Source: a virus. Taken from it: a DNA stretch of 43,926 bases. The translations under genes and the position numbers were made by a program. The notes beneath the pieces were generated by a model. It was not told the DNA's origin. It made no database searches and saw nothing but the letters and a program-made list of their open reading frames with translations. Of the stretch, positions 4,824-41,714 are shown piece after piece. The stretch lies in UHGV virus genome UHGV-0164981, one strand, 5' to 3'. Position 1 is the first letter of the stretch, and every line of letters starts with the position of its first letter.

Positions 4824-5381
4824 TTTTACGCTCTCCCCACATGCGATTGAGATACTTGTTCTTGTCCGGCCCAGGGAAACTGTTACGTTTCATCAGTTCC
4901 TCACGTGTCGGGAACGGTGTGTGACTGACTTTACGGCCTACTCGTAATGGTTGGCTTACTTGACCTTGTTCGCTCATCACTTAACCTCAACATAATCGGT
5001 AGTAAGGAATACAATTTCGCCGTTAACAATCAAAAGCGGTGTATCTTCGATGACGCTTTTAACCTCTACAAAATACCCACCGTAACTGTCGTCTATAAAC
5101 AGAACGTCTCCAGGTACTAAATCTGCGGCTAACTTGCTCATTTCTTCTCTCCTGCATAAGCTGCTTTCAGTGTCTGCATCGCGGCGAACCAGAACGCGTC
5201 CGCGGGAATGCTGTTGCTCAGGTTACTAACGGCGATTCGTGCCATCAGTTGTGCGTCTTTGAATGCTTCGATGTCTGTGATTTTCATTTCTCTCTACTCC
5301 GTTCTCGTTGTCGATGGAGTAAATATAATAGGGTCGAGGGTAATAGTCAACTAGTCATTGCAGAAAATAGATAAAAAAAAT

Positions 5382-8349: not shown

Positions 8350-8381
8350 TGAATAGTAGCCTATTCTATCTTAGCGTGCAA
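8350..8381 (-). promoter_or_regulatory. class A promoter (TTGCAC-17 nt-TACTATTCA) reading leftwards
   Basis: Reverse complement reads TTACTTGCAC gctaagatagaataggc TACTATTCA; lies upstream of a small ORF starting at about 8332. Confidence 0.5.
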
Positions 8382-9448: not shown

Positions 9449-9480
9449 TGAATAGTATCCTATTATATTGGGGTGTGCAA
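9449..9480 (-). promoter_or_regulatory. class A promoter (TTGCAC-17 nt-TACTATTCA) reading leftwards
   Basis: Reverse complement reads TCTTGCAC accccaatataatagga TACTATTCACTTA, nearly identical to the element at 31631-31670. Confidence 0.55.
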
Positions 9481-9724
9481 GAGAATAGTTACGTTGCCGT
9501 TGTGATTCTTTCGTTTCTTTAAAGAGTACGCAACGCAGTGGGTGGGCGATAGCCCACCCCAGCGGAGTGAAGTACTCTCTACCTTGCTTACGGCAACTAA
9601 AGAAACTTTTAATTATCAAGTACTTATGAATGGAGGTAAAATTTAAATAGACGGGGTCTTTCTTGTCACTTGCTGTTACTTTTAGGAAACTTAGATACTA
9701 ACGTTACCAAGAGTACTGTTTAGC

Positions 9725-9744
9725 GCCCCGCTTTAGGGCGGGGC
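9725..9744. terminator. hairpin GCCCCGC-TTTAGG-GCGGGGC in a 400-nt non-coding divergent region
   Basis: Read from sequence; the same stem recurs at 40836-40855. Confidence 0.4.
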
Positions 9745-9901
9745 TTTAAGTACCCGAGACTTAAGAATAATGTTTCTAAGTAATTCTGAACTAAGGCCCT
9801 TCGATACGTTGATTTTACAGCTACATTTTATTTTGTCAATAGGTTGTGTTTAGTTATTATAGGTGTTATAGTTGTTTAACTTGATAAAGAGGGCGTGTAA
9901 A

Positions 9902-10081
9902 ATGACACAGAAAGAAGTAGCAGACTTAATCGGAGTTTCCACTATGACTCTTAATCGCTGGCTTCGGTCCGGTAAGTTCCCGGAGTGTTGCCGTGTTATT
10001 AACGGCTACCGGCAGCCAGGTACGTTTGACCGCGCTACCGTGGAGGCGTGGATTAAGGAGAACGTGAAAGATGCTAACTAA
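9902..10081 (+). CDS. AlpA/Xis-like HTH DNA-binding protein
   Basis: MTQKEVADLIGVSTMTLNRWLRSGKFPE is a typical AlpA/excisionase-type HTH; ATG at 9902 with AAGAGGG RBS; first gene of the rightward module. Confidence 0.55.
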   Translation: MTQKEVADLIGVSTMTLNRWLRSGKFPECCRVINGYRQPGTFDRATVEAWIKENVKDAN

Positions 10082-10346
10082 ATTCCAGAAACACATATTA
10101 ATGTGTGCGCGCAGACTTACCGAGGCGAACGGTGCTTTTACGGTAGATGGGCTTCGTAGATACCGGTTAGATAATTACGGTGTAAATCCGATTAAACATG
10201 CTTTAAATGTTCTTGAGCAACACGGAGAGGTTCTTAATAAAGGAAAGTTTTATCGGGCAACAAGAGCAACGCCGATTACAGAGAAAGCGAGAAGTATTGG
10301 AAAAGTGTTGGTCCCCGAGGGTAATATCTCCCGCGACCTGGAATAA
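10071..10346 (+). CDS. hypothetical protein
   Basis: 91-aa ORF overlapping the upstream stop. Confidence 0.4.
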   Translation: MLTKFQKHILMCARRLTEANGAFTVDGLRRYRLDNYGVNPIKHALNVLEQHGEVLNKGKFYRATRATPITEKARSIGKVLVPEGNISRDLE

Positions 10347-10404
10347 AAGAAAGCCCCGACGCGGTGAACGCCGAGGCCAAATTACTTACTGAAGGAAATA
10401 CAAC

Positions 10405-12672
10405 ATGTCCGATGTAATTTTATCCTACTCGTGGTCTCGTCGCAACGCGCGGGCAGAGAAAAAGGATATAAACGTCAGAACCACACACACGGCAACACTG
10501 GACGACCTGAAAGAGTTAATCCAGCCGCTTGATGCTGTCCGTGACGGAATTAACCCGAAGACAGCGCCCGGTTATATCACCGCCGCGTGCGACTCAACGC
10601 ACAGCACCGTAAAAGACCCGGAAACCGGTGACTTTAAGCGAGCGCGTAAAGGCTTCTTCTATCGCTGTGACGCGTCTGTAAGCAAATCATCGCTGGCGTA
10701 TCTGGACTTTGACAGCGCAACGCCGGAAGAGTATCAGGAAGCGGTGCGCCTGGTTAAGCGTAGCCGCCAGGCTATGTGTCTCTACACCACGGCATCCCAT
10801 ACCGATGAGTCACCGCGCTTTCGCGTCGTCATGCCGCTGGGCCGCCCGGTCGAAGGGGGCGACATCATCCGCATACGTCATGGATTGCTGGAGCACTTCT
10901 TCAAAGGCATGGGCGCTGACCGTAGCGGGTTCACTTTGTCTCAGCCCATGTACCTTCCTCCGGTAGGCTCTCAGGTTATCTGGTCGCGCCGTAACGACCT
11001 TATTGACCCGGAAGAGTTACTGGAAGGCATCCCCGCCGTTGACGTTAGCAGCGCATCTGACTACCAGATACCGGAAGAACTGCGCACTGCATTTACTGAT
11101 GCGTTCGAGGCACTGGCGTTCGAATACGGCGGCATCATGACGCCGCGTGGCCTTAAGATGCCCGCCACACCGGAACACGCAGAAAACTACAGCGACCCGA
11201 CCCCGCGCCCGGACGACTTCCTGCTGTGCTTCCCGCGCGAGGGATATGAAGCGCCGAACGTAACGATGATTCACGACACCGACATCACGGCAACCGAAGG
11301 CATGTCGCCGAAAGAGGTGTGGAAGTATGCGTGTGATGCGACCGGACTGCCGTTCAGTGAAGTCGCAGAGGCCATCGGATGGGGCGCGCGTGAAGCCGTC
11401 TCATGCAGCCTGGATGACCTTGAAGACGACGAGGACTCAGAGGAGGACGAGTTACCGGAACCGGTAAAGGCTGATTTCGTCGTTGAGGGGTACATGCCGT
11501 CGGATTGTATCTGGGATATTGTTGGGGAGTCTGGCACGTATAAATCATTCTATACGCTGGGGATGATGTACCTGAGCGCCGCCGGATACCGGTTTGCCGG
11601 GGCAGATACCCAGCGTTGCCACCATTTCTATATCGACGGTGAGGGCGGTGCCACTACACGCACCCGTATTGATGCACTCGCGGCTAAATATGGCGAGGAA
11701 GGTAAAGATTATGTACATGTTATCGATATGGGTGAAGTCGGAAAACTGAAAAGCCTGATTAAGTTAATGCGCGAAACTGCGGGTGATGAACCCATCGGCA
11801 TGGTCGCGTTCGACACCCTTAACCAGACGCTGGCCCTGACGATTGATAAGTTCGACGAGAACAGTTCATCAACGGCAATCGGCATGGGTAAAGTTATCGC
11901 CATCCTGAAAGAAGTACGCGACGCAACTAAAGCCGCGGCAGGCGTTGTACACCATACGCCGAAGGGTGGAAAGAAAGCCCGTGGCAGTGGAGCATTGTAT
12001 GCTGGTGTCGACGTGGAACTGACAATCGAACGTGCTACCGACCGTCAGATAAACGTATACCACTCTAAATTTAAGCACGGGCCTCAACAGAAGACGGTTG
12101 GCATGGTACTGGAGTCGGTACAGTTTCGTGAAGCACCGCCGCCGAAAGAGTACCGCGCGGTTGAGTTCCTCGGTAGCACAGAGGAATACGGCACAATAGT
12201 AAACCTCGACCTGCCTGAGCCGCACAAGGCGCTTGTGCTGATGCCGTGGGGCTTCGAGCCGTTCAAGACTGATGAGGAGAAAGAGCGGGAAGAAGGGTTA
12301 ACTAACGAAGGTAAACAAAATGTACGTAAAACCGTAGAGAACGCCGTCAACAGTTCCGAGTCCACTATACTCGCGGCGTTTGAACTGGCGGAGGGGACCT
12401 ACAACGGCAACGAAGGTATCACGGTATCCGCGGCGAATAAGCTCGCACAGTCTGACCCCAACGCAAAGGCGTTTAACTCCAAAGAAGCCATAGAACGCGG
12501 GAAGATTAAGAAAATGGTTGAGGCTGGGTATCTTGTTCCGGGTACTGACGAAAACAATCAGATAATCCCAGGCCGTTACAGACTTAACACCCGGATAACG
12601 GATAACAAGATTCCGAAGACAATATACGAACCCAATGAGATGCTGACAGTGACAGAGGAGGATTTGGAATGA
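10405..12672 (+). CDS. putative primase-helicase fusion (primase-polymerase-like N-terminus, P-loop helicase C-terminus)
   Basis: 755 aa. N-terminal half has LAYLDFD and SHTDESPRFRVVMPL elements suggestive of archaeo-eukaryotic-type primase motifs; C-terminal half has Walker A GESGTYKS and a RecA-like ATPase pattern. Acidic linker (DDLEDDEDSEEDE) between halves. Confidence 0.65.
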   Translation: MSDVILSYSWSRRNARAEKKDINVRTTHTATLDDLKELIQPLDAVRDGINPKTAPGYITAACDSTHSTVKDPETGDFKRARKGFFYRCDASVSKSSLAYLDFDSATPEEYQEAVRLVKRSRQAMCLYTTASHTDESPRFRVVMPLGRPVEGGDIIRIRHGLLEHFFKGMGADRSGFTLSQPMYLPPVGSQVIWSRRNDLIDPEELLEGIPAVDVSSASDYQIPEELRTAFTDAFEALAFEYGGIMTPRGLKMPATPEHAENYSDPTPRPDDFLLCFPREGYEAPNVTMIHDTDITATEGMSPKEVWKYACDATGLPFSEVAEAIGWGAREAVSCSLDDLEDDEDSEEDELPEPVKADFVVEGYMPSDCIWDIVGESGTYKSFYTLGMMYLSAAGYRFAGADTQRCHHFYIDGEGGATTRTRIDALAAKYGEEGKDYVHVIDMGEVGKLKSLIKLMRETAGDEPIGMVAFDTLNQTLALTIDKFDENSSSTAIGMGKVIAILKEVRDATKAAAGVVHHTPKGGKKARGSGALYAGVDVELTIERATDRQINVYHSKFKHGPQQKTVGMVLESVQFREAPPPKEYRAVEFLGSTEEYGTIVNLDLPEPHKALVLMPWGFEPFKTDEEKEREEGLTNEGKQNVRKTVENAVNSSESTILAAFELAEGTYNGNEGITVSAANKLAQSDPNAKAFNSKEAIERGKIKKMVEAGYLVPGTDENNQIIPGRYRLNTRITDNKIPKTIYEPNEMLTVTEEDLE

Positions 12673-12866
12673 GCGGTAAATTTAAAGAAGTAAGCGACGA
12701 ACTGAAAGGCAATAAATACACCAACCACAGAGGCGAAGTAGTTGAAGTTCTTAACGTAGTTCCTTATGGGCGCGGGTATCATGTTGTGTACAGTTACACA
12801 GAGGCTTACAGCGTGTACTGCGGGTTAGGTAAGTTTCGCAAAAGATACCCGATAAAGGTGCAATAA
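12669..12866 (+). CDS. hypothetical protein
   Basis: 65-aa ORF translationally coupled to the upstream gene (GAGGAGG RBS inside the upstream stop region). Confidence 0.45.
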   Translation: MSGKFKEVSDELKGNKYTNHRGEVVEVLNVVPYGRGYHVVYSYTEAYSVYCGLGKFRKRYPIKVQ

Positions 12867-12870
12867 AAAG

Positions 12871-12892
12871 AAAGGGGCATTAAGCCCCTTCA
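12871..12892. terminator. bidirectional hairpin GGGGC-ATTAA-GCCCC between convergent genes
   Basis: Inverted repeat flanked by A-run and T-rich sequence, between the 12669-12866 (+) and 12880-13095 (-) genes. Confidence 0.5.
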
Positions 12893-13095
12893 CCTAACGC
12901 CAGCCACTTGGCGTCTACTTCCAGCACTTCCGCCAGTTTAAACAGCGTTGCCGGGCGGACGTCCTGAGTTACACCGAGAGCCAGCTGGTTAATCGCACCC
13001 TGGGAAACGCCAGTCAGGACAGCCAGCCGGCGCTGGGAGATGCCGAGTTCTTTACGGCGTTGCTCTACACGGATTCCTAGTTCAGATGGTTGCAT
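12880..13095 (-). CDS. XRE-family (Cro/CI-type) HTH transcriptional regulator
   Basis: 71 aa; LGISQRRLAVLTGVSQGAINQLALG is a classical Cro/CI HTH; the only minus-strand gene inside the plus-strand replication module, with its own upstream promoter and AAGGAG RBS. Confidence 0.7.
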   Translation of the reverse strand: MQPSELGIRVEQRRKELGISQRRLAVLTGVSQGAINQLALGVTQDVRPATLFKLAEVLEVDAKWLALGEGA

Positions 13096-13126
13096 GTCAA
13101 TTACTCCTTAGTCAGTTGATATGTGA

Positions 13127-13155
13127 ATAGTACCATATTAATTATTTTAGAAAAG
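13127..13155 (-). promoter_or_regulatory. class A-like promoter (TACTATTCA -10 region) for the XRE regulator gene
   Basis: Reverse complement reads ...TTAATATGG TACTATTCA CATATC followed by AAGGAG and ATG; -35 is weak. Confidence 0.45.
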
Positions 13156-13159
13156 CCCA

Positions 13160-13188
13160 TTGACATGTGAATAGTTCGCTATTATAGT
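13160..13188 (+). promoter_or_regulatory. class B promoter (TTGACA-17 nt-TATAGT) with GAATAG-N4-CTATT inverted repeat in the spacer
   Basis: TTGACA tgtgaatagttcgctat TATAGT; divergent from the XRE gene promoter. Confidence 0.6.
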
Positions 13189-13218
13189 TAGCCCATACCA
13201 AACGAGAGGAGAGACAAA

Positions 13219-13380
13219 ATGAAGTTCAGAGTAGACATGCAACCAACAGAAGAAATGTTAAAAGCCGGCATAGACCAACTGATATACTACATCCCTGGCA
13301 TCGAGGATGAAGTCGATGAAGAGCAACTATCAGACGCCGTTTATTTTATCTGGCAAGCAATGATTCAAGCGTCAAAATAA
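13219..13380 (+). CDS. small hypothetical acidic protein
   Basis: 53-aa ORF (not in track) with GAGAGGAGAG RBS 6 nt upstream of ATG; coordinates approximate. Confidence 0.35.
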   Translation: MKFRVDMQPTEEMLKAGIDQLIYYIPGIEDEVDEEQLSDAVYFIWQAMIQASK

Positions 13381-13395
13381 ACAGGAGAACAAATA

Positions 13396-13917
13396 ATGTT
13401 AGAGAAATTCTTAGTATTACTGGAACGTTTCGTAGTTGCACATGAACTGATTGCTGCGAACAGTGTGAAACAACCGACTAATAAATCTGTAGGTGAATTG
13501 ACTGTTGACGTCGCGGTAACTGGGGTGGAGACAGTTAAAAAAGAACTGGCTAAAGCACTTGAAGAAGTCGAGAAGGCGAAAGAACTCCCAGTCGAAGGTG
13601 AAGACCTCGTTGACACTAAACCGGCGGAAGAAGAGAAGCCGAAACGCAAGCCGCGTAAAGCTAAAGTAGAGGAGCAGACGCCAGAACCGGAAGAAGAGAA
13701 GGAAGAAGTCAATTATCAGTCTCTGCGCGACCAGATTCAGGCTATCGACGATGCGATTAACGAAGGTCCGAGTGACACCGCGTGTGATGATTCCGATGAA
13801 CTGCTGGAAGAGTTCACTGGTAAGAAGATGAAGATTGCTGCTATTAAAGACGAAGACCTCGCCGAGTACCTGGAACGCCTGACAGCAATCAAGAACAAGT
13901 ATTTCGAAGAAGAATAA
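13396..13917 (+). CDS. highly acidic, low-complexity protein of unknown function
   Basis: 173 aa with long E/K/P-rich central region (PAEEEKPKRKPRKAKVEEQTPEPEEEKEEV) and acidic C-terminus; AGGAGA RBS. Confidence 0.5.
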   Translation: MLEKFLVLLERFVVAHELIAANSVKQPTNKSVGELTVDVAVTGVETVKKELAKALEEVEKAKELPVEGEDLVDTKPAEEEKPKRKPRKAKVEEQTPEPEEEKEEVNYQSLRDQIQAIDDAINEGPSDTACDDSDELLEEFTGKKMKIAAIKDEDLAEYLERLTAIKNKYFEEE

Positions 13918-13923
13918 TCATCT

Positions 13924-13945
13924 GGCGGCCTTCGGGCCGCTTTAA
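13924..13945 (+). terminator. hairpin GGCGGCC-TTCG-GGCCGCTTT
   Basis: Directly after the stop of the acidic protein gene. Confidence 0.45.
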
Positions 13946-13960
13946 CTGAGGGTCGGAATT

Positions 13961-14239
13961 ATGATTTACCAACTCTACCGCGCCTTTGACAGGCGGGATA
14001 ACACGGAGGCGTTGTGGTTATTGCGTGCGCCGTCCGGTGCACACCAGATGGAAGAGATGGCGTACTTAGGAAAAGTGCCACGGCCTAAAGATATAGGCCG
14101 CCACGTGTCGCAGATTAAGCGCACGACTTTCGCCAAACCTGACTTTTACGTCTTCGAGTCGATGTATGGCTGGGCCATGCATTGCGACCATAAGACAAGA
14201 CATTTAATTGACCAGTGGGAGAACAGGGTATGTTTGTAA
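13961..14239 (+). CDS. hypothetical protein
   Basis: 92-aa ORF after the terminator-like hairpin. Confidence 0.45.
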   Translation: MIYQLYRAFDRRDNTEALWLLRAPSGAHQMEEMAYLGKVPRPKDIGRHVSQIKRTTFAKPDFYVFESMYGWAMHCDHKTRHLIDQWENRVCL

Positions 14240-14366
14240 TTATGTATTCAATCGGTGAGGAAGAGTACGAACACAGTAGATACCTTACATCCGCAGAGGC
14301 TGAGAATATAATACACGAACTTGACGCTGACAGTTTTGACTACGCATGGATTGAGGAGATTACGGA

Positions 14367-15608
14367 ATGATTCTTAAAGAACGTGGTGGCAATAACGATG
14401 TGCACGCAATACTGTCGCCGTCTGGCGCTAAAAAGTGGTTAAGTTGCGCGGCATCACTGGCATGTGAAAAAGATATTCCTAACACGTCCGGTAAAGACGC
14501 CGTATTAGGCACGGCTATGCACACGATAGCGGAGATGCACCTTAACCAGTACATCAAAGGCACTGCGCTGCCGTTAGAGCGTGAAGTCGGCGCTTACGTG
14601 ATGGATGAGGGTAAAGGTCAGATTAAGGCGCTAATCAGTCCGATGAAAGGCGCGGTGCTTATTACGGCGGACATGATTGAGCAGGTGCGCAAGTACACCG
14701 ACTACTGCAAAGCGATTATCGATGTAGCTACTTACGCCAAACTCGAGATGCGCGTCAATCTTACTGAGGTATTGCACCCCGGTTACGAAGGCGTTGAGAC
14801 ATTCGGAACCGCTGACCTTGTTGCCGTCCAGGAACTGGCGAACATCGACGAGCACATGCTTATCATCGGCGACCTGAAAACTGGACGGCATCGTGTCGAA
14901 GCGAAAGAAAACAAGCAGCTTATGCTATACGCTCTCGGTGTTTATCGCCGACTAAAGAGACGTTATAACATCACAGTTGTTCGTCTGGTCATCTTCCAGC
15001 CGTACGCGGGTGGCGCGTCGGAGTGGGACATCTCGGTCGAAGGTCTGGAACTGTTCGCCAAGTTCGCACAGAAACGCGCACTGTTGGCTCTTGATGCATA
15101 TTTCCGCGGTAAGAAGAACCTGAAAGCGTCTGACTTCAAGCCGTCGGTCGATGGTTGTCAGTGGTGTCGGTTCTCTGAACAATGCGCCGCGCGTACAAAG
15201 ACGGTCAATTCTGTACTGGCGGAAGAACTGGAAGACGACTTTGCACTGGAACTGACGCCAGAGCAACTCGTAGCTGAGTATGAGAAGCTGCCGTTGTTGC
15301 GCCAGCACATCGACAAGGTTGAGAAAGCTATGGTCGCCGCGTTGCATTCTGGTAAGAAAGTGCCGGGGTACAAATTGGTTGAGGGTCGTCCAGGTAATCG
15401 TGCGTGGAAAGATGCCGATGCGGTATTCGAGAAGTACGGTACTATGCTGCAAAAGGTAGTTCTGATGACACCAACCGAAGCGGTTAAAGTAATACCAGAA
15501 GAAGAACTGAAAGACTTCATTACCCGTAAGCCAGGAGCGCCATGCGTCGCAACGGCGGATGACAAGCGTCCTGAGTGGAATCAGGTAACAGAGGAGGATT
15601 TGGAATGA
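14367..15608 (+). CDS. PD-(D/E)xK-family nuclease (Cas4/RecB-like, DUF2800-type) with C-terminal Cys cluster
   Basis: 413 aa; N-terminal ILSPSGAKKWLSC, central DLVAV...IIGDLKTG...EAKENKQLMLYALG resembling a D..(D/E)xK core, and CQWCRFSEQC resembling a Cas4-type Fe-S cysteine cluster. Confidence 0.55.
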   Translation: MILKERGGNNDVHAILSPSGAKKWLSCAASLACEKDIPNTSGKDAVLGTAMHTIAEMHLNQYIKGTALPLEREVGAYVMDEGKGQIKALISPMKGAVLITADMIEQVRKYTDYCKAIIDVATYAKLEMRVNLTEVLHPGYEGVETFGTADLVAVQELANIDEHMLIIGDLKTGRHRVEAKENKQLMLYALGVYRRLKRRYNITVVRLVIFQPYAGGASEWDISVEGLELFAKFAQKRALLALDAYFRGKKNLKASDFKPSVDGCQWCRFSEQCAARTKTVNSVLAEELEDDFALELTPEQLVAEYEKLPLLRQHIDKVEKAMVAALHSGKKVPGYKLVEGRPGNRAWKDADAVFEKYGTMLQKVVLMTPTEAVKVIPEEELKDFITRKPGAPCVATADDKRPEWNQVTEEDLE

Positions 15609-15778
15609 TGGTTTATATTCTCACGCGGTATCACCGCCGATACTCTATTCAAGAACTTGATATTGTTTCTGTCCACGCTAAACGCGCCGACGCCGACAAA
15701 ATTGCAGAAGAGAAGAACTCGAAGCATGAGGCGGTGCAGCCATATATTTATAAGGTGGTTCCGAAGAAACTTAAATAA
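15605..15778 (+). CDS. hypothetical protein
   Basis: ATG at about 15605 overlaps the nuclease stop (ATGA), GAGGAGG RBS; track ORF begins at 15575. Confidence 0.4.
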   Translation: MMVYILTRYHRRYSIQELDIVSVHAKRADADKIAEEKNSKHEAVQPYIYKVVPKKLK

Positions 15779-15782
15779 AGTG

Positions 15783-15811
15783 TTGACACCTGAATAGCAA
15801 GCTATTATAGT
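15783..15811 (+). promoter_or_regulatory. class B promoter (TTGACA-17 nt-TATAGT) with GAATAG-N4-CTATT inverted repeat
   Basis: TTGACA cctgaatagcaagctat TATAGT upstream of the SSB-like gene. Confidence 0.6.
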
Positions 15812-15870
15812 TCTAATCACTGGCCGGGCAGCTTCCCGGAGTAAACGAAACTGAAAAGCGAGAAATCACG

Positions 15871-16503
15871 ATGGGTATTAAACTGAATCTGCGTAAAGTA
15901 AACACTGCTTGGGTTAACGTATTCGAACGCGAAAAAGACCGTGAAAACGATGATGGCTCAATCACTAAAGGCCAGTACAGCGCGACTATCATCCTTCCGT
16001 CTGACCATGCTCAAATCGACGCGCTCTACGACACCGTTTACGCTGTAGTTGAAGAAGCGTTAGGTGCAGCCGCCGCCGAGAAGTGGATGAAGTCCAACTA
16101 CGGCGAAGGTAAGCACATGGATAAATGTGCGATTAAAGATATCGCTGAGCGCGACAATCCGTTTGAAGACTTCCCGGAAGGCTTCTACTTCAAAGCGAAG
16201 GCACAAAAACAGCCGCTGATTGTAACCTCTAAAAAAGGTGAGACTCAGGTAGAGCAGGACTTCAACGTAGACGGCGAACAGATTGAAGGTGAACAGGTTT
16301 ACAGCGGCTGCGTAGCTAACGTAAGCGTTGAAATCTGGTTCAGCCAGAAATACAAAGTTCTCGGTGTTAACCTGCTGGCGATTAAATACGTCGGCGAAGG
16401 TAAGGCGTTCGGTGGTTCTAAAGTCGCCGCAAGCGTCGACGACCTGGAAGACGACCTTGAGGATGATGGGCCAGCACCACGCCGCGAACGTCGTCGCCGC
16501 TAA
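15871..16503 (+). CDS. putative single-stranded DNA-binding protein (DUF2815-like)
   Basis: 210 aa with acidic C-terminal tail (DDLEDDLEDDG) as in SSBs; sits between the nuclease and the DNA polymerase, an arrangement seen in phage replication modules. Family assignment is from memory. Confidence 0.5.
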   Translation: MGIKLNLRKVNTAWVNVFEREKDRENDDGSITKGQYSATIILPSDHAQIDALYDTVYAVVEEALGAAAAEKWMKSNYGEGKHMDKCAIKDIAERDNPFEDFPEGFYFKAKAQKQPLIVTSKKGETQVEQDFNVDGEQIEGEQVYSGCVANVSVEIWFSQKYKVLGVNLLAIKYVGEGKAFGGSKVAASVDDLEDDLEDDGPAPRRERRRR

Positions 16504-16524
16504 TATCTGAATAAATTTAACTAA

Positions 16525-16550
16525 GGCCCTTCATTGGGCCTTTTTACTAA
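16525..16550 (+). terminator. hairpin AAGGCCC-TTCATT-GGGCCTTTTT
   Basis: Directly after the SSB-like gene stop; followed by a T-run. Confidence 0.55.
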
Positions 16551-16562
16551 GGGTCGAAAATA

Positions 16563-18812
16563 ATGAGTTACCTGTTCTTAGACTTTGAAACATTCTCCGA
16601 AGCCGATTTGAAGAAAGTCGGCTCCTATGCTTACGCTGAGCACCCAACTACCGAAGTGCTTATCTGCACATACGCTTTTGACAACGAGCCAGTGCAGATA
16701 TGGGATTGCACCGACGGCAGCGACATGCCTGGCGATTTGCACCGCGCACTACGCCGCCTGGTTAAACCAAACAGTCGCATTAAGATGGTGTGGCATAACG
16801 GTGGACTTTTCGACAGGCTCATCATGAAAAACTGCTGGGACTTTGATATTCCGGTAAGCAACACCATTGATACTATGATTTGGGCGTTTCGCCACGCGCT
16901 GCCGGGTTCGCTAGATGCGCTGTGCGAAGTGCTTGGCGTGTCCGCCGACAACGCGAAAGACAAACGCGGCAAGGCGCTTATTCAGCGTTTCTCTAAACCG
17001 ACACCGAAGAACTACAAAATCCGCCGATACACCGCCGAAACGCACCCGGATGAGTGGGCGCTGTTCATCAAGTACGCCGTGAGCGACATCACTGCGATGC
17101 GTGAAGTCTTCCATAAGCTGCCGCGTTGGGGTAACTCAGAGTTCGAAGACCGTGTACTGGAACTGGACCAGTTAATCAATGACCGCGGGTTTAAGGTCGA
17201 CGTTGCACTGGCGGAAGCCGCGATTGAAGCCGTGGAGAAGCACAAGGCGCAGTTACAGGAAGAAGCCCAACGTAAATACGGCGGGTCGCTTACCGGTAAA
17301 GACTTTCTGCCTATTCTGCGTGAACTCGCTCCTGCGCACAGAATCCACAACGCGCAGAAGTCGACGCTGAATGACCTGCTGGCTGATGATGATTTACCGG
17401 ACGACGCTCGCGCGATTATCGAAATGCGCCTCGGGGCGGCGTCCACTGCGTCAACGAAATATAACCCGCTGCTGCTAGGACGCTCGTCGGACGACCGCCG
17501 TCGTGGTTGTATCCAGTACGGAGGCGCTAAGCGTACATTACGGTTTGCGGGTAAAGGCTTCCAGCCACAGAACCTCGCACGCGGGTACTATCACGACGAC
17601 CCGAAGAATAAAAAGAAGAAAGTACGTTATGACTGGATGTCAGAGAAGGACTGGTGGAGAGTAACGCACCCATTGTCCTACGGAATTGACCTGCTGTTTA
17701 AAGGCCGTGCGCATCGCCGTTTTGATGTGGCAAAACTGACAGCATCTACGGTGCGTAGCTGCATCATACCGGAAGCCGGGCATAAGTTTGTCGTAGCTGA
17801 TTACTCTAACGTTGAAGGTCGCGGGTTGGCATGGCTGGCAGGAGAAGAAACCGCTCTCGATACCTTCCGTGCGGGATTGGATATTTACTGTGTAACCGCG
17901 GGTAAGATGTTCGGCATGGACCCTGATTACATTCTCGAAAGCCGTAGTGACCTACGCCAGATAGGTAAAGCATGTGAATTGGGCCTTGGCTATGCTGGTG
18001 GTGTCGGTGCTTTCGTTCAGTTTGCTAAGAACCTCGGCTTAAACCTGGTCGATATGGCTAAAACAATGGACGGGACTTTCCCCGACCATATATGGGCCGC
18101 TACTGCACGCGGATACGAGTGGGCGCGTATTCAGGAAGCCAAGCGACCGCCACGCCCCGGTGAAAAAGATGACCGGCCATCATATATTCTCGATAAGAAA
18201 GTGTGGCGCACATGTGATGCAATCAAGCGTATGTGGCGCGAGTCTCACCCTGAAACAGTAGCATTCTGGCGTGATATTGAAGACGCAGCTATGGCGGCTA
18301 TCCGCAACCCAGGTAAAGAGTTCACTGCAGGTCCGCGGGGAGTTAAGTTTTCGCGTAACGTAGAAACAGATAACAACGGCAACAAAGTCGCTGGTTGGTG
18401 GTTGCGGATGACGTTGCCGTCGGGTCGCGTTATGTCATACCCCGGCGTCGGGTTAAGTGTATCGAAAGAGACAGACGAAGACGGAAAGGTGTCTACTAAC
18501 GTGCGCATCAAGTACCAGGGGGAAAACCAGTTAACCCGTCAGTGGGGCTTCCAGTACACCTACTCCGGTAAACTGGTGGAAAACTGCACTCAGGCGCTGT
18601 GCCGTGATTTGCTGGCTAACGCCCTGCTGAATGTAGAAGCAAACGGATATCCAATTGTGCTTCATGTTCACGATGAGATTATCTGCGAGACCCCAGATTT
18701 ACCAGAATACAATGTCGCAGAGCTTGGGCGGTTGATGTGCGAATTACCGGAATGGGCCGAAGGGTTCCCTCTTGTAGCGGAAGGTGCGGAGATGATGCGT
18801 TATGCCAAGTAA
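16563..18812 (+). CDS. DNA polymerase, family A (Pol I-like, with 3'-5' exonuclease domain)
   Basis: 749 aa; N-terminal FLDFETFS (Exo I-type DxE), later YAVSDI, and C-terminal HVHDEI resembling the family A motif C; length and layout fit a T7/Pol I-type enzyme. Confidence 0.85.
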   Translation: MSYLFLDFETFSEADLKKVGSYAYAEHPTTEVLICTYAFDNEPVQIWDCTDGSDMPGDLHRALRRLVKPNSRIKMVWHNGGLFDRLIMKNCWDFDIPVSNTIDTMIWAFRHALPGSLDALCEVLGVSADNAKDKRGKALIQRFSKPTPKNYKIRRYTAETHPDEWALFIKYAVSDITAMREVFHKLPRWGNSEFEDRVLELDQLINDRGFKVDVALAEAAIEAVEKHKAQLQEEAQRKYGGSLTGKDFLPILRELAPAHRIHNAQKSTLNDLLADDDLPDDARAIIEMRLGAASTASTKYNPLLLGRSSDDRRRGCIQYGGAKRTLRFAGKGFQPQNLARGYYHDDPKNKKKKVRYDWMSEKDWWRVTHPLSYGIDLLFKGRAHRRFDVAKLTASTVRSCIIPEAGHKFVVADYSNVEGRGLAWLAGEETALDTFRAGLDIYCVTAGKMFGMDPDYILESRSDLRQIGKACELGLGYAGGVGAFVQFAKNLGLNLVDMAKTMDGTFPDHIWAATARGYEWARIQEAKRPPRPGEKDDRPSYILDKKVWRTCDAIKRMWRESHPETVAFWRDIEDAAMAAIRNPGKEFTAGPRGVKFSRNVETDNNGNKVAGWWLRMTLPSGRVMSYPGVGLSVSKETDEDGKVSTNVRIKYQGENQLTRQWGFQYTYSGKLVENCTQALCRDLLANALLNVEANGYPIVLHVHDEIICETPDLPEYNVAELGRLMCELPEWAEGFPLVAEGAEMMRYAK

Positions 18813-19092
18813 ACTTATTATCGCGGTACTGGCGGGATTCGCCGCCGGTGTCTACTGTCACGAGGGCCAATACGGCATGATGGTTGCCGTGTTGGGCATG
18901 TTCATCGCAATTTATCTGTGGGTGCTGGAATGAAAATTTACTGGTTCTACGAAGAAGACTGTCGAATCTGTCCGCGCTGCGGGATTGAACATACGAAACG
19001 TGAGGGGTGTGTATTATGACAATGCTTACCACTATTATGATAATCGTAGCCGTGTTTTTAGGTGTTGCCGTTTTGAGTAAGGTAACGGACTG

Positions 19093-19377
19093 ATGACCCC
19101 GGAAGGCAAAATACAGAAATACGCGAAAGAGCGATTCGAGGCCCTCGGCGGCCTCGTTCGTAAACTTTCCTATGAGGGGCGCTCCGGCGCTCCCGACCTG
19201 CTGGTGATTCTCCCCGGCGGCATCGTCTGGTTCGTCGAGGTTAAGAAAGACGAAAACACGGAACCAGACCCACACCAGTTACGAGAGCATGAGCGGATGC
19301 GTAAACGTGGCGCGAATGTTTTTGTCGTCGGATCGTTTAAACAGGTTGACGACCTAATAGCGAACTATTATAGTTAG
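19093..19377 (+). CDS. VRR-NUC domain nuclease
   Basis: 94 aa; PDLLVILPGGIVWFVEVKKD...QLREHERMRKRGANVFVV matches the VRR-NUC layout (PD...(D/E)xK with trailing Q..E). Confidence 0.6.
   Translation: MTPEGKIQKYAKERFEALGGLVRKLSYEGRSGAPDLLVILPGGIVWFVEVKKDENTEPDPHQLREHERMRKRGANVFVVGSFKQVDDLIANYYS
19346..19374 (+). promoter_or_regulatory. class B promoter (TTGACG-17 nt-TATAGT) with AATAG-N4-CTATT inverted repeat
   Basis: TTGACG acctaatagcgaactat TATAGT, embedded in the 3' end of the VRR-NUC gene, upstream of the 19408 ORF and helicase. Confidence 0.5.
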
Positions 19378-19407
19378 CCCTACACCAACAATATAAGGAA
19401 TTGAGAA

Positions 19408-19599
19408 ATGAAACACGAATATGACCGCAAACCAGCACGTGACATCGTACCTGGTGACATGATTTTCAACGTTAAGACCCGTCGCCCTGTTGCCGTTGAT
19501 ACGGTGTTCGTCGAGTCGAATGGTAAACTGGTTATTGAAGACGTAACCGGTAACGTTACGGCGTTCGGGCGTAAAGAGTTAGTTCTGGTGGCAAAATGA
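19408..19599 (+). CDS. hypothetical protein
   Basis: 63-aa ORF with GGAATTGAG RBS-like sequence; stop overlaps the helicase start (ATGA). Confidence 0.45.
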   Translation: MKHEYDRKPARDIVPGDMIFNVKTRRPVAVDTVFVESNGKLVIEDVTGNVTAFGRKELVLVAK

Positions 19600-21020
19600 G
19601 TAAGTTTCAAAGGCGCGAATACCAGAAGCTCATGACTTCGTTCATGCTGCAACACCCGCGCTGTAATATCTGGTGCGGCATGGGAGGAGGTAAAACCTCC
19701 TCCACTATGTGGGTGCTAAACCGCCTGTTCCGCAACGGGCAGCTTACCGAAGAGGACCGCGTGTTAATCCTCGCCCCGTTGCGCGTTGCGTCCGGTACGT
19801 GGCCTGCAGAACAAGAGAAATGGAACTTTCCTTGTCTGCGTGTCGTAGATGCGACCGGTTCAGAGAAGCGCCGCATCGCGGCGCTGGAGTCTGATGCTAA
19901 CGTGGTGTGCACGAACTACGAAGTTATCGAATGGCTGATTGACTACTACGGCAAAGACGACTGGCCTTTTACGGTTATCGTTGCCGATGAAAGCACGAAG
20001 CTTAAATCATTCCGCAGCCGTTCGGGTGGTAGCAAGCGGGCAAAGGCGCTTAGTAAAGTGGCGTTCGGTAAGGTTAGGCGTTTCATCAACCTGACTGGTA
20101 CGCCGTCACCAAACGGCCTTAAAGACTTGTGGGGTCAGAACTGGTTTATCGACGCGGGCGAGCGCCTTGGCTCATCATACACGGCATTCACCGACCGCTG
20201 GTTTAACTCGGTACAGAAAGGAAAATCTGCGATGGCTCGTGAATATCACGCACGACCGGGTGCGGATAATGAGATTCACCAGAAGATGAAAGACATCAGC
20301 TTGACCATCGACCCCGCCGAGTGGTTTGGTTGCGAAGCTCCTGTTATCGTACCGGTCGAAATAGACCTGCCGAAGAAAGCGCGTCAGGCGTACATAGACA
20401 TGGAGGAGAAGCTATTCGCGGAACTGGAGAGCGGGGAGGTTGAAGCGGCTAACGCCGCGGCGAAGACGTCGAAGTGTTTGCAGATTGCATCCGGTGCCGT
20501 ATATGTGTCGGGGTCAGACGGCGAAGCAACCAAAGAATGGGAGAAAGTGCACGACACGAAACTGGATGCGCTGGAGTCAATTGTTGAGGAGTTACAGGGT
20601 GCACCGTTACTGGTGGCCTATCAGTTTAAGCACGAACTGGAGCGCATCCTTAAGCGATTCCCGCAGGCGCAGGCGTTTGCCAAAGGTGCGAAGGGTAATA
20701 AGCAGATGGAAGCGTGGAACCGAGGTGAAATCGAAATCATGTGCGTGCATCCTGCGTCAGCCGGGCATGGTTTGAATTTACAGGACGGCGGGCATCATCT
20801 TGCGTTCATCTCACAAGGATGGAACCTTGAGCACTATTTGCAGGTCGTTGAGCGCATAGGCCCGGTACGCCAGAAGCAGGCAGGCCACGAGCGCCCGGTG
20901 TTCCTTTATCACATAGTCGCTAAAGACACGCTGGATGAGGTTGTTGCCGCGCGTACAGACGATAAGAAATCGGTACAGGAAGAATTGCTCAATTACATGA
21001 AGAGACGAGGTACGAAATGA
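19596..21020 (+). CDS. SF2 helicase (SNF2/DEAD-like ATPase)
   Basis: 474 aa; Walker A CGMGGGKTSST, DExx-type VIVADESTK, and a C-terminal helicase region (HPASAGHGLNLQ) consistent with SF2 motifs. Confidence 0.7.
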   Translation: MSKFQRREYQKLMTSFMLQHPRCNIWCGMGGGKTSSTMWVLNRLFRNGQLTEEDRVLILAPLRVASGTWPAEQEKWNFPCLRVVDATGSEKRRIAALESDANVVCTNYEVIEWLIDYYGKDDWPFTVIVADESTKLKSFRSRSGGSKRAKALSKVAFGKVRRFINLTGTPSPNGLKDLWGQNWFIDAGERLGSSYTAFTDRWFNSVQKGKSAMAREYHARPGADNEIHQKMKDISLTIDPAEWFGCEAPVIVPVEIDLPKKARQAYIDMEEKLFAELESGEVEAANAAAKTSKCLQIASGAVYVSGSDGEATKEWEKVHDTKLDALESIVEELQGAPLLVAYQFKHELERILKRFPQAQAFAKGAKGNKQMEAWNRGEIEIMCVHPASAGHGLNLQDGGHHLAFISQGWNLEHYLQVVERIGPVRQKQAGHERPVFLYHIVAKDTLDEVVAARTDDKKSVQEELLNYMKRRGTK

Positions 21021-21154
21021 ACATCATAGCCCCGATTCCGGCGTTGCAAAAACGTATCAAGGAACTCGAAGAAGAGGTTCTACGACTACGGCAGCAAAGG
21101 GACGCCGCTAATGCGCAACTGGCGTTTGTACTGGAGAAGTTGTCAGAAGAGTAG
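21017..21154 (+). CDS. small coiled-coil protein
   Basis: About 45-aa ORF (not in track) overlapping the helicase stop: MNIIAPIPALQKRIKELEEEVLRLRQQRDAANAQLAFVLEKLSEE; coordinates approximate. Confidence 0.3.
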   Translation: MNIIAPIPALQKRIKELEEEVLRLRQQRDAANAQLAFVLEKLSEE

Positions 21155-31634: not shown

Positions 31635-31663
31635 TTGCACACCCCAATATAATAGGGTACTAT
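31635..31663 (+). promoter_or_regulatory. class A promoter (TTGCAC-17 nt-TACTAT) driving the plus-strand cassette
   Basis: TTACTTGCAC accccaatataataggg TACTATTCACTTA; same element as at 9449-9480, 8350-8381 and 41133-41161. Confidence 0.6.
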
Positions 31664-31693
31664 TCACTTACACCAACAATGAAGGGGTTTAAA

Positions 31694-31885
31694 ATGTCCA
31701 GTTTACCAGTTTCCTTAATTCTGTTTGCACTGCTCGCTTATTTCGCGCCTTTCCTGGTTGCGTACTTCCGTAACCATAAAGCGAAGTTAGCGATATTCAT
31801 GGCTAATCTGTTTCTTGGTTGGGTTCTGCTGCCGTGGGTATTTATCTTAATCTGGGCGTGCAACTCGAATGTCAAAGAGAAGTGA
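31694..31885 (+). CDS. small two-TM membrane protein, superinfection-immunity-like
   Basis: About 63 aa from the second ATG (AAGGGG RBS): MSSLPVSLILFALLAYFAPFLVAYFRNHKAKLAIFMANLFLGWVLLPWVFILIWA; the YF.P..VA..R.H....I...N.FLGW pattern matches my recollection of the small Imm-type superinfection immunity family. Confidence 0.5.
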   Translation: MSSLPVSLILFALLAYFAPFLVAYFRNHKAKLAIFMANLFLGWVLLPWVFILIWACNSNVKEK

Positions 31886-31923
31886 GCTAGTATAGGACAA
31901 ATCCTAAACACGAGGAAGTAAGC

Positions 31924-33054
31924 ATGGCCCAGAAGAAAATAACCGACGAACAGTTACAGGAAGAATTGAACGCCGGGATGAAGAATGTAGACATCGCCCG
32001 TAAATACGGCATCTCAGACCGCGTTATTCGTATCCGTAAAGCGAAGCTGGCTAAGAAAGGCGTAGGTCACGGGCGAGACGTTAGTCACCTTGTGCCCGAT
32101 GGCTACAAGATTAAGGGTACATCGTCTCTGGTGGACGAGTTCGGCAACACTAAGTTGCAATGGGTTAAGACCGACACCGATGCCGAACGTCAGGTAGAGT
32201 TGATGAAAGCCGTAATCGAAGGAATGAAATCAGAGATTACGCCAGTCGCCCCTGTTAAAGCGGCACGCGCCAAACGTGACGATAAACTACTCAATCTTTA
32301 CACTGTGTCTGATTTTCATCTCGGTATGCTGGCATGGGCCGATGAGAGCGGCGACGACTGGGATATGAAGATTGCAGAAGACCTGTTCTCTCGATGGTTC
32401 GACGCGGCGTTTCAGAAAGCACCGGACGCGGGAACAGGAGTTATTAACCTTCTGGGCGACCTCGCTCACTTCGATAGTCTGGATGCAGTTACACCTGCAA
32501 GCGGGCATGTTCTTGATGCGGACACGCGCTATCAGAAACTTGTACGCTATATGATTCGGATGGTCCGCCGTGTCATTGATATGGCGCTGGTTAAGCATAA
32601 AAATGTTCGCTTGCTTATCGTGCAAGGGAACCACGACGAAAGCGGAATGATTTGGTTGGCTGAGATGTTCAGTACGCTGTATGACAACGAGCCGCGGGTG
32701 TTCGTCGATACGTCGCCGGATGTTTACAAGATGGTGCAACACGGCAAAACGACGCTGTTCTTTCATCACGGTCACAAAGCACGCTTCGACGCTATCGAAC
32801 CAGTTATGATTGCCAAGTTCCGCAAAGCGTTCGGCGAGAGTATTTACAGCTACGCCCACGTAGGCCATCTGCACCACCAGAAGATTGTAGAAAGCCGTAA
32901 CATGATTGTTGAGCAACACCGCACCTTAGCGGCTAAAGACGCCTACGCCTCTCGCGGCGGATGGATGTCGGGCCGCAGTGCAAATGTAATTACTTATAGC
33001 GCCGAATATGGCGAGGTCGCACGTTTAACTATTTCACCGGAGATGCTGGGATGA
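31924..33054 (+). CDS. HTH domain fused to calcineurin-like metallophosphoesterase (SbcD/Mre11-type motifs)
   Basis: 376 aa; N-terminal NVDIARKYGISDRVIRIRKAKL (HTH-like), then SDFHLG, GDLAHFD, QGNHDE, FFHHGH and GHLHHQ in the canonical order of binuclear metallophosphoesterase motifs. Confidence 0.7.
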   Translation: MAQKKITDEQLQEELNAGMKNVDIARKYGISDRVIRIRKAKLAKKGVGHGRDVSHLVPDGYKIKGTSSLVDEFGNTKLQWVKTDTDAERQVELMKAVIEGMKSEITPVAPVKAARAKRDDKLLNLYTVSDFHLGMLAWADESGDDWDMKIAEDLFSRWFDAAFQKAPDAGTGVINLLGDLAHFDSLDAVTPASGHVLDADTRYQKLVRYMIRMVRRVIDMALVKHKNVRLLIVQGNHDESGMIWLAEMFSTLYDNEPRVFVDTSPDVYKMVQHGKTTLFFHHGHKARFDAIEPVMIAKFRKAFGESIYSYAHVGHLHHQKIVESRNMIVEQHRTLAAKDAYASRGGWMSGRSANVITYSAEYGEVARLTISPEMLG

Positions 33055-33539
33055 AAGATATTGTAATTTTCGATTTAGACGGGACATTGGCCGACGGTAC
33101 CCATCGCTTACACCTGTTACCAAAAGATAACTACGGAGAAACGTGGGCGTGGAAGCCATTTAACATGGCCTGCAAAGATGACGCTCCGATATACGACAAT
33201 ATCCATTTGTGTAGCGTACTGTGGCATTCCGGACTTACTATAATTATCCTTACCGGGCGAAGTGATGACGCTGAGGAGGAGACTCGCGAATGGTTACGAG
33301 AGAATAACGTTAGGTTTGACACGCTAATCATGCGCAGCAAACACGACAACAGAAAAGACATCGTAATTAAAGAAGAGGTGTTGCGTGCTTTCGGACTGGA
33401 AAGAATCTTGTGTGCGTTCGACGACTCTCCAGCGGTAATAAAGCATTTCCGTGACCTCGGCATAACCGCACACGCAGTTACCGAATACGACTGTAACGGG
33501 AACTCTACACACTTAAAACCACACGGGAGCGATAAATAA
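33051..33539 (+). CDS. HAD-superfamily phosphatase (polynucleotide 3'-phosphatase / nucleotidase-like)
   Basis: 162 aa; motif I VIFDLDGTLA, motif II IILTGR, Lys-containing KHDNRKD, motif IV CAFDDS. Layout resembles the phosphatase half of T4 polynucleotide kinase as I recall it. ATGA overlap with the upstream gene. Confidence 0.7.
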   Translation: MKDIVIFDLDGTLADGTHRLHLLPKDNYGETWAWKPFNMACKDDAPIYDNIHLCSVLWHSGLTIIILTGRSDDAEEETREWLRENNVRFDTLIMRSKHDNRKDIVIKEEVLRAFGLERILCAFDDSPAVIKHFRDLGITAHAVTEYDCNGNSTHLKPHGSDK

Positions 33540-34093: not shown

Positions 34094-34096
34094 GAA

Positions 34097-34124
34097 AAAG
34101 GCCCCGAAAGGGGCCTTAGTTTTA
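34097..34124. terminator. bidirectional hairpin AAGGCCCC-GAAA-GGGGCCTT
   Basis: Perfect GC stem between the convergent kinase gene (+) and major tail gene (-), with A-run and T-run flanks. Confidence 0.65.
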
Positions 34125-38168: not shown

Positions 38169-38423
38169 TTATGATTCGATTACACCGGCGGCGCGTAGTT
38201 GCGCCAGAAGTGCATTTAGTTTAGTGCCTACGGCGTTAACCGCGGTCTGTGCGGACGTAGCAACCGCGGCGACATCCCCACCAGTAACGGTTTGCGTACC
38301 GATGTTCGCTACCGCAGCACCCTTCTTAACCAGTCCGGCGGTTTCTGCCGTTGCTTCTGGCACAACATTACTGAAATCGGTGTTCTCAAGGCTGCGAGGC
38401 AAGCCTTTTCCGGTCTTAGCCAT
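38169..38423 (-). CDS. small virion protein
   Basis: 84-aa Ala/Thr/Val-rich ORF immediately downstream of the capsid gene terminator hairpin; AAGAGG RBS. Confidence 0.4.
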   Translation of the reverse strand: MAKTGKGLPRSLENTDFSNVVPEATAETAGLVKKGAAVANIGTQTVTGGDVAAVATSAQTAVNAVGTKLNALLAQLRAAGVIES

Positions 38424-38440
38424 AATTTACCTCTTAGTAA

Positions 38441-38464: not shown

Positions 38465-38481
38465 TAGATTATACATACAAA

Positions 38482-40855: not shown

Positions 40856-41064
40856 GCGCTAGTCCTTATCATTTAAACATAGAAACGGCGTAATCTCAGT
40901 AAACCAGTTACTTTTTACACAAGCAATAGAGTATGGCCCTTCCGAACGCGTCAGCGTAACTACACTCAGGACTTACGTCCCGCTCCGTTACCTGCCCGCG
41001 CCGCGGTCGCTTGTTCATACTTCACAAGCTCAGGTGGAGCTTATCATATTTTCAGTGAAAAGTC

Positions 41065-41080
41065 AACTATTCGAATAGTT
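41065..41080. promoter_or_regulatory. perfect 16-bp palindrome AACTATTCGAATAGTT (candidate operator)
   Basis: Read directly; uses the same CTATTC/GAATAG half-sites as the spacer repeats of the class B promoters. Confidence 0.5.
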
Positions 41081-41132: not shown

Positions 41133-41161
41133 TTGCGCACACCAACATAATAGGGTACTAT
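41133..41161 (+). promoter_or_regulatory. class A promoter (TTGCGC-17 nt-TACTAT) driving the 41189 ORF
   Basis: GTTTGCGCAC accaacataataggg TACTATTCAG, then CAGGAG RBS and ATG. Confidence 0.55.
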
Positions 41162-41188
41162 TCAGTTAACTTAAACAGGAGATGAGAA

Positions 41189-41710: not shown

Positions 41711-41714
41711 AACT

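Follow-up and report, generated by a model that had tools for sequence, protein, structure and literature searches.

A Cro-like XRE protein and dispersed palindromic sites suggest repression of non-structural promoters in a Kagunavirus genome

The viral genome UHGV-0164981, a stretch of 43,926 nucleotides analysed at its full length and called the window below, looks from its sequence like a whole genome of the genus Kagunavirus (subfamily Guernseyvirinae), the phage being a virulent one of E. coli. It codes for a small DNA-binding protein of the XRE family, named XRE hereafter. The reading preferred here, with a probability of about 0.6, is that XRE is a Cro-like repressor with conserved dispersed operators: a dimer would bind the 14-bp site AATAG-N4-CTATT, shut off promoters of non-structural genes and regulate its own synthesis. 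This reading is carried by the family and fold of the protein, the excess of the motif, its placement in promoters, the conservation of its arms relative to its centre and the association of operator type with the recognition helix of XRE. The best matches of a 2.5-kb query around the locus, among 446 phage records matched, are the Escherichia phages K1G, phiEc3 and Ivi, at 92-95% identity.

The gene and its product have the following features:

12880..13095, minus strand: XRE gene; 71 amino acids, a stand-alone HTH_3 protein that is Cro-like or similar to a CI amino-terminal domain; recognition helix at about residues 31-39 (SQGAINQLA).

Residues 11-65 match Pfam family HTH_3 (PF01381) with an E value of 2.3e-12 and 47.2 bits, for a curated cut-off of 23, and the protein also matches repressor and regulator families of PHROG. 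The nearest solved structures found by sequence search of the PDB are 434 Cro, which has 71 amino acids too (E 8e-6), the amino-terminal domain of 434 repressor, and P22 C2. An AlphaFold2 (AF2) model obtained from single-sequence input has five helices and a mean pLDDT of 85. Foldseek matches this model to 434 Cro (2cro) with TM scores of 0.77/0.83, and its fold matches in the TM range 0.73-0.81 comprise 434 Cro, P22 C2, SinR, HipB and controller proteins of restriction-modification systems (C.AhdI). XRE is thus predicted to adopt the five-helix fold of the lambda repressor/434 Cro type. It consists of the DNA-binding domain alone, devoid of an oligomerisation or S24 cleavage domain. Its orthologs are 93-100% identical in Kagunavirus, ~48% in Jerseyvirus and 41% in SE1-like Guernseyvirinae.

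The palindrome AATAG-N4-CTATT occurs in seven exact copies in the window, for 0.04 expected, and in 11 copies when one mismatch is allowed, for 0.76 expected; no shuffled sequence matched either count. In an assumption-free tally of palindromes with two 5-bp arms separated by 0 to 10 bp it ranks first in the window (7 copies), in K1G (6) and in Jersey (4), the other top-ranked palindromes being GC-rich terminator hairpins. The original prediction, made from the letters of the window, had described a GAATAG-N4-CTATT repeat in the spacers of three promoters of a class B, TTGACA-17-TATAGT. The repeat is present in all three, but its symmetry is limited to 5+5 bp and the leading G is not conserved (TAATAG at 19355); the promoter sequence is exact at 13160-13188 and 15783-15811 and has one mismatch (TTGACG) at 19346-19374. 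Four further exact sites had been overlooked (8352, 9451, 31651 and 41149), all in a second promoter class, class A, as had an imperfect site adjoining the XRE gene (13126-13139) and a site on a -35 box (5342-5355). All exact and one-mismatch promoter sites are intergenic or at gene ends, within promoter-like elements that face downstream genes. One additional one-mismatch site, at 38-51, lacks promoter context, is missing in K1G and was treated as a chance occurrence.

The predicted promoters that carry the operator outside the immediate XRE upstream region, together with the one facing it, are listed here. Class A has the sequence TTGCAC-17-TACTAT, written out TTGCAC-N10-[AATAGnnTACTATT], in which the right arm of the operator lies inside the -10 box TACTAT.

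13160..13188, plus strand: P_B1, class B TTGACA-17-TATAGT, 11/12 positions; drives 13219 onwards.
13170..13183, no strand: O_B1, exact operator AATAG-TTCG-CTATT, at about -25 to -12 of P_B1.
15783..15811, plus strand: P_B2, class B; operator 15793-15806, AATAG-CAAG-CTATT; drives the SSB and DNA polymerase genes.
19346..19374, plus strand: P_B3, class B (TTGACG); operator 19356-19369, AATAG-CGAA-CTATT; drives the SNF2 helicase operon and overlaps the 3' end of the open reading frame (ORF) 19093-19377.
9452..9480, minus strand: class A TTGCAC-17-TACTAT; operator 9451-9464 over the -10 box; drives small leftward genes from 9426.
8353..8381, minus strand: class A TTGCAC-17-TACTAT; operator 8352-8365; drives leftward genes from 8322, with holin and endolysin further along.
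31635..31663, plus strand: class A; operator 31651-31664; drives a non-structural island within the tail module.
41133..41161, plus strand: class A TTGCGC-17-TACTAT; operator 41149-41162; drives one RusA-like gene, 41189-41710, within the head module.
5322..5355, minus strand: promoter TTGACT-17-TATATT (5350-5322) with a one-mismatch operator (5342-5355) centred on its -35 box, ACTAG-TTGA-CTATT on the minus strand.

The site at 5342-5355 has equivalents in Jersey, AATAG-TTGA-CTAGT with the mismatch in the opposite arm, and in SE1, AATAC-TTGA-CTAAT. Assuming that transcription starts 7 nt past the -10 box, the operators occupy three registers: about -25 to -12 in class B, in the spacer and touching the -10 box; about -19 to -6 in class A, over the -10 box; and about -40 to -27 for those on a -35 box. 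Symmetric operators overlap core promoter elements at the seven exact sites and at three conserved one-mismatch sites. Given spacers of 17 bp and an overlap with core elements in each of the three registers, steric repression rather than activation is the sensible reading of how XRE would act. Activation from the spacer in the manner of MerR was considered and discarded: the spacers already have the optimal 17 bp and XRE has no dimerisation helix of the MerR type. A role of the repeat in RNA was likewise set aside, the class B sites being upstream of the presumed transcription start (about -25 to -12) with AU-rich arms of only 5 bp.

The original prediction also held that one dimeric HTH protein could bind the repeat in every class B spacer. 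Binding of a dimeric XRE there is supported by indirect evidence, and the putative targets reach further, to class A promoters and to sites on -35 boxes.

The region between the XRE gene and its divergent neighbour (13096-13218) has these additional elements:

13144..13171, minus strand: candidate XRE promoter TTCACA-16-TAAAAT, 10/12 positions, presumably back-to-back with P_B1, the two -35 boxes being adjacent.
13133..13128, minus strand: alternative candidate core of the XRE promoter, a -10 box TACTAT of the class A type with a poor -35 box.
13126..13139, minus strand: O_xre, imperfect operator AATAT-GGTA-CTATT (one mismatch, minus strand); covers TACTAT 13133-13128 and lies at ~-3 to +11 of the TTCACA promoter.

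An XRE promoter back-to-back with class B promoter 13160-13188 had been proposed before. The candidate TTCACA-16-TAAAAT does adjoin P_B1, but it is one of two predicted candidates and its -35 box varies among relatives. At the place of the alternative core, Jersey has a complete TTGCAC-17-TACTAT promoter that includes ATTAC-TGTA-CTATT, the equivalent of O_xre. O_xre overlies the start region or the -10 box, whichever candidate is used, a position that points to autoregulation. It is found 44 bp upstream of the XRE start codon (-44) with the identical mismatch in 36 of 36 Kagunavirus loci, and O_B1 is exact in the same 36 loci at -88/-89 from the start codon. The XRE region is the only place with two sites, 44 bp apart; elsewhere there is one site per promoter. 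The segment 13116-13145 resembles a duplicated promoter core.

The proposed course of events is as follows. Dimeric XRE would sit on single operators at about nine sigma-70 promoters and, overlapping their core elements, would block RNA polymerase. Its targets would be the replication and recombination operons, the small leftward genes ahead of the lysis genes, and a pair of islands within the structural module. At the start of infection XRE would be absent and the host polymerase would fire all operator-bearing promoters. XRE would come from the divergent region 13096-13218, where its promoter would be weak, and, as it accumulates, would occupy the exact operators first, turning down the non-structural promoters. 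Higher levels would fill its own imperfect operator at 13126-13139 and limit its own synthesis. That the sites with one mismatch, next to the XRE gene and on -35 boxes, are kept imperfect suggests such a graded affinity. All of this is conditional: that XRE binds, that it dimerises, that it represses instead of acting in some other way, and in what order and when the sites fill.

Conservation of the sites was assessed in 58 IMG/VR loci retrieved with the XRE protein, 36 of which belong to Kagunavirus. The exact sites are at matching relative positions in all 36. For seven orthologous sites, with 25-33 unique sequences each, the arm columns are variable in 7 of 70 cases (mean divergence 0.4%), compared with 15 of 28 for the four central columns (13%) and 254 of 560 for the flanks (11%). 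The context is of class A or class B for 131 of the 133 unique site contexts in 38 Kagunavirus sequences. In Jerseyvirus the same sites are at the same promoters, extended to TAATAG-N4-CTATTA. The repeats, whose conservation in related genomes the original prediction had left as a point to check, are thus almost invariant in their arms in Kagunavirus and kept in Jerseyvirus. SE1-like Guernseyvirinae have only relaxed AWTAS-N4-STAWT sites, five for 0.48 expected, all within promoters. In these phages (Salmonella phage SE1, L003 4112-7148; L050-L053) XRE is encoded on the helicase-primase strand, apparently as the first gene of its operon, and the operator-like sites are partly asymmetric, with ATTAG, AATAC or AATAG half-sites.

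More distant relatives connect this type of site to the recognition helix. Six temperate loci (L054, L055, L057-L059 and L061) code for CI-like proteins whose amino terminus is 36-43% identical to XRE and keeps the motif GV[ST]QGxIxQ. In the two loci examined these proteins have 150 (L059) and 230 amino acids (L054) and are encoded divergently from a small Cro-like gene. The L054 protein is 39% identical to D3 cI and, as judged by reading its sequence rather than by a family search, its carboxyl-terminal domain resembles an S24 peptidase. Exact or near AWTAG-N4-CTAWT sites are confined to the immunity region in the six loci (9-20 kb of sequence each), with one to three sites directly upstream of the cI-like gene in 6/6. 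Four of the loci (L054, L057, L058 and L059) have an extra pair of sites 25 bp apart directly downstream of the gene, an OR/OL-like layout. The negative control was provided by 26 bacterial homologs with another recognition helix, 32-46% identical overall and retrieved via helices 4-5: none has an exact site within 300 bp. The operator type thus appears to follow the recognition helix of XRE. The scan of bacterial genomes returned only these divergent-helix homologs, which served as the control and did not count as new examples, and one likely phage contaminant. The latter is scaffold22 of 'Taishania pollutisoli' (L098, NZ_JACVEL010000022.1), assigned to Bacteroidota, with an XRE gene of the Jerseyvirus type and operators at -97, -42 and -2326; the scaffold is probably a phage contamination of the assembly.

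Several points weigh against the repressor model. The Jerseyvirus helix reads SQSLITH and that of Kagunavirus SQGAINQ, yet both go with the same AATAG core, so that helix and site covary loosely; the SE1-like helix is near that of Jerseyvirus, but only relaxed AWTAS-N4-STAWT sites are found there. A strict covariation of helix and half-site across the three groups (TAATAG-N4-CTATTA in Jerseyvirus, AWTAS in SE1-like phages) was looked for and given up in favour of this loose pattern. In both promoter classes the right arm CTATT reaches into the -10 box or adjoins it, and it is also present in promoter 5322-5350 without the left arm; part of its conservation is therefore due to promoter function. 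The helicase-primase gene lies behind the operator-free promoters 9812-9860, and part of the replication module would then escape control. The one-mismatch sites at 5342 and 41058 are on promoters directed into packaging and head genes, which fits poorly with a simple shut-off of early genes. The transcription start of XRE is a prediction, as are the binding, dimerisation and expression of the protein.

The original prediction had spoken of a genetic switch. In the bistable sense of CI and Cro this is not borne out: a CI partner, clustered operators and lysogeny genes were not found. Beside the HTH_17 protein described below, no second repressor of the XRE/CI type was found among 40 other ORFs of the window. 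No S24 peptidase family appears among the best 25 of the 35 Pfam families of the window or in the K1G annotation. Each promoter has a single site, with no OR/OL-like clusters such as those 24-25 bp apart in the temperate relatives. Integrase and partition or maintenance genes are annotated neither in K1G (92% identical over the compared region) nor found among the best 25 Pfam/PHROG families for 40 ORFs of the window.

These results bear on the alternative that XRE is an immunity or maintenance repressor similar to P1 C1, which would keep the phage as an unintegrated episome in some cells (a carrier state or unstable lysogeny) and confer superinfection immunity. Single operators at almost every independent non-structural promoter are the layout that silencing of a whole genome requires, and among proteins that share the XRE helix the nearest are CI repressors from temperate phages. 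Guernseyvirinae are nonetheless generally regarded as virulent, and the 71-amino-acid XRE is a DNA-binding domain without the oligomerisation or S24 domain that would serve cooperativity or induction. The absence of integrase and partition genes from the K1G annotation and from the best 25 of 35 Pfam families counts in the same direction, and the strong operator-free promoters at 9812-9860 would stay on. For the SETP3-like Jerseyvirus SGP-C, turbid plaques, immune 'lysogens' and a possible episome were reported (PMC8790156), but the evidence is weak. On balance an immunity function is unlikely. Its extension to the subfamily, in which Guernseyvirinae would be cryptically temperate and XRE would hold, via its ~nine operators, an unintegrated repressed carrier state in a subpopulation together with superinfection immunity as in P1, is considered quite improbable.

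The palindrome could instead be recognised by another protein of the phage, HTH_17, or by a factor of the host, and XRE would then have a local or unrelated role. The HTH_17 gene (9902-10081, plus strand) opens the rightward operon and codes for a 59-amino-acid protein of the excisionase/AlpA-like type (E 2e-8 for HTH_17); it is kept in K1G (98%) and Jersey (71%). Apart from its product and XRE, no DNA-binding protein was found in the window, and the connection between XRE and the sites is itself drawn from sequence patterns. This explanation is improbable for several reasons. The HTH_17 gene is absent from the SE1-like and temperate relatives that bear such sites, a phyletic distribution that disfavours it as the binder, and the site type tracks the recognition helix of XRE. 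Proteins of the excisionase/AlpA type usually act as monomers on direct or asymmetric sites. For the host, no enterobacterial factor is known to us whose consensus is AATAG-N4-CTATT.

A purely intrinsic promoter feature, for instance a -10 box with extended context or what is left of a duplicated promoter, would agree with the right arm overlapping the -10 box in class A and abutting it in class B, with promoter 5322-5350 keeping CTATTATATT without a matching left arm and with the duplicated appearance of 13116-13145, but it is very improbable considering that the left arm has no known promoter role and is yet invariant, that with respect to the -35 and -10 boxes the palindrome takes up three registers, and that the same type of site forms operator clusters around cI in unrelated temperate phages.

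The Cro-like repressor model has parallels in known systems. Both 434 Cro and 434 repressor are dimers when bound to their operators of 14 bp. XRE resembles 434 Cro in length (71 amino acids), as its best PDB sequence match (E 8e-6) and among its best fold matches (TM 0.77/0.83). The sites also correspond: 14 bp with two-fold symmetry, outer bases contacted by the 434 proteins and putatively by XRE, and a variable centre, overlapping -10 or -35 boxes of sigma-70 promoters. Gln28 of 434, which reads the outermost adenine, aligns with the invariant Q of XRE. The half-site is AATAG in the window, in contrast to ACAA(G/T) in 434, and single sites at about nine promoters replace the two triple clusters OR1-3 and OL1-3. 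XRE has no CI partner, no lysogeny genes were found and the subfamily is virulent. The CI proteins of temperate phages akin to Pseudomonas phage D3 (L054-L059) share with XRE a homologous DNA-binding domain (36-43% identity), the GV[ST]QGxIxQ helix and AWTAG-N4-CTAWT operators; they differ by their greater length (150 amino acids in L059 and 230 in L054, the two examined), their divergent Cro-like partner and operators clustered 24-25 bp apart at OR/OL-like positions.

P1 C1 is the precedent for one repressor with many single scattered operators, each at its own promoter. It differs in its unrelated fold and asymmetric operators, and in that P1, a true plasmid prophage, has antirepressor circuitry. 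The C proteins (C.AhdI, C.BclI) are small stand-alone dimers of the XRE fold that rank high among the fold matches of XRE, and time gene expression through two sites at their own promoter, one strong and one weak, an arrangement that the exact O_B1 and the imperfect O_xre resemble. C proteins act on their own operon only, first activating and then repressing, whereas about nine promoters would be involved here and activation is only a geometric possibility.

In the literature, a paper on a SETP3-like phage used the name "Cro" for the same HTH gene and "cI-like" for HTH_17, and pointed to both genes in claiming temperate behaviour (PMC8790156). RNA-seq of a Kagunavirus placed an HTH-domain gene among only four early-peaking genes and classed replication genes as middle (PMC12645636). 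This gene (_008) is probably the XRE ortholog, which would accord with the repressor model. Full-text searches retrieved no account of these operators, only mentions of "Cro" or "repressor" at annotation level for Kagunavirus and Jerseyvirus. XRE would thus be a phage regulator of an ordinary kind whose target sites seem not to have been described before.

The original prediction had added the palindrome AACTATTCGAATAGTT at 41065-41080 to the targets of the same protein. This 16-bp palindrome is real and conserved, but it is not the same operator: its arms are in reversed order (CTATT-CG-AATAG) and separated by a 2-bp gap. With the reversed arms and the different spacing, a dimer fitted to AATAG-N4-CTATT cannot sit likewise on AACTATTCGAATAGTT. 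The palindrome is exact in 33 related contigs, which is uninformative because the whole region is conserved, and in three unrelated contigs. It overlaps a site with operator geometry at 41058-41071, AATAG-TTGA-CTTTT on the minus strand with one mismatch, a possible member of the XRE target set. The promoter element at this place is:

41038..41080, minus strand: candidate leftward promoter TTGACT(41066-41061)-17-TAAGCT(41043-41038), with the one-mismatch operator-like site centred on the -35 box.

High conservation across about 33 contigs of Kagunavirus and Jerseyvirus marks the surrounding non-coding segment 40814-41188 (375 bp, minus strand). Its minus strand features the TTGACT-17-TAAGCT element, a conserved leader of ~200 nt (fold z = -2.3) and a terminator-like hairpin at 40857-40838 plus TTTACTTATC, directly preceding the spanin, scaffold and capsid genes. 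The segment has no match in Rfam; by analogy to lambda PR'-6S it could be a late leader under antitermination, or a non-coding RNA.

Two non-structural islands, 31635-34117 and 41133-41735, are on the opposite strand within structural modules, where promoter-like elements are scarce. Each has its own operator-bearing class A promoter and ends in a bidirectional terminator (34098-34117 and 41715-41735, respectively). The first codes for proteins assigned to superinfection immunity, a repair exonuclease, polynucleotide kinase and an ATP-binding protein, and K1G has an equivalent island promoter. At the place equivalent to the RusA-like island 41189-41710, K1G has no exact operator.

The XRE gene is the sole real minus-strand gene in the plus-strand replication block 9872-21154, as originally described. 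The block holds the helicase-primase, located upstream of XRE, and the exonuclease, SSB, DNA polymerase A and SNF2 helicase, all located downstream. The only other minus-strand ORF in it, 15581-15820, overlaps a promoter and has no annotation in K1G. The divergent partner of XRE is an ORF of 53 amino acids without family assignment, followed by replication genes. The XRE transcript would end at the following element:

12871..12891, minus strand: intrinsic terminator of the XRE transcript; hairpin of 8 pairs, 5 GC, then CTTTTTATT on the minus strand.

Read on the plus strand, this hairpin has no T-run, and rightward transcription from upstream may therefore pass it and run antisense to XRE. The strongest operator-free promoters are a divergent overlapping pair at 9812-9860, near consensus (TTGTCA-16-TATTAT on the plus strand and TTGACA-16-TAAAAT on the minus strand), that leads rightwards into the HTH_17 and helicase-primase genes. 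Between the leftward class A promoter and this early pair, ~390 bp (9480-9870) have no convincing gene and carry GC-rich hairpins, GGGTGGGCGATAGCCCACCC at 9541-9560 and GCGCCCCGCTTTAGGGCGGGGC at 9724-9745; the segment could be an origin or could harbour small RNAs or terminators. Scans of the window gave no Rfam or tRNA matches. The K1G RefSeq record NC_027993.1 (L001) omits the XRE gene, but an intact ortholog is present at 33428-33643, 94% identical, with a ribosome-binding site and both operators. ORF 38224-40029 (plus strand, 601 amino acids, GTG start) is unusually long for an antisense ORF and is almost certainly spurious, being antisense to the major capsid (38482-39531, minus strand) and scaffold (39531-40289, minus strand) genes.

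The operators reveal no new mechanism. Kagunavirus and Jerseyvirus are common candidates for therapy and food safety whose gene regulation is essentially undescribed. A defined map of operators and promoters gives a testable model of their temporal programme and a compact repressor/operator set for phage engineering, and it explains why non-structural islands within the structural module have their own promoters. Turbid plaques and "lysogens" reported for this group have raised a question of safety, to which the map is relevant as well. If these phages were cryptically temperate, this would concern Guernseyvirinae that are widely used as strictly virulent agents of therapy and biocontrol.

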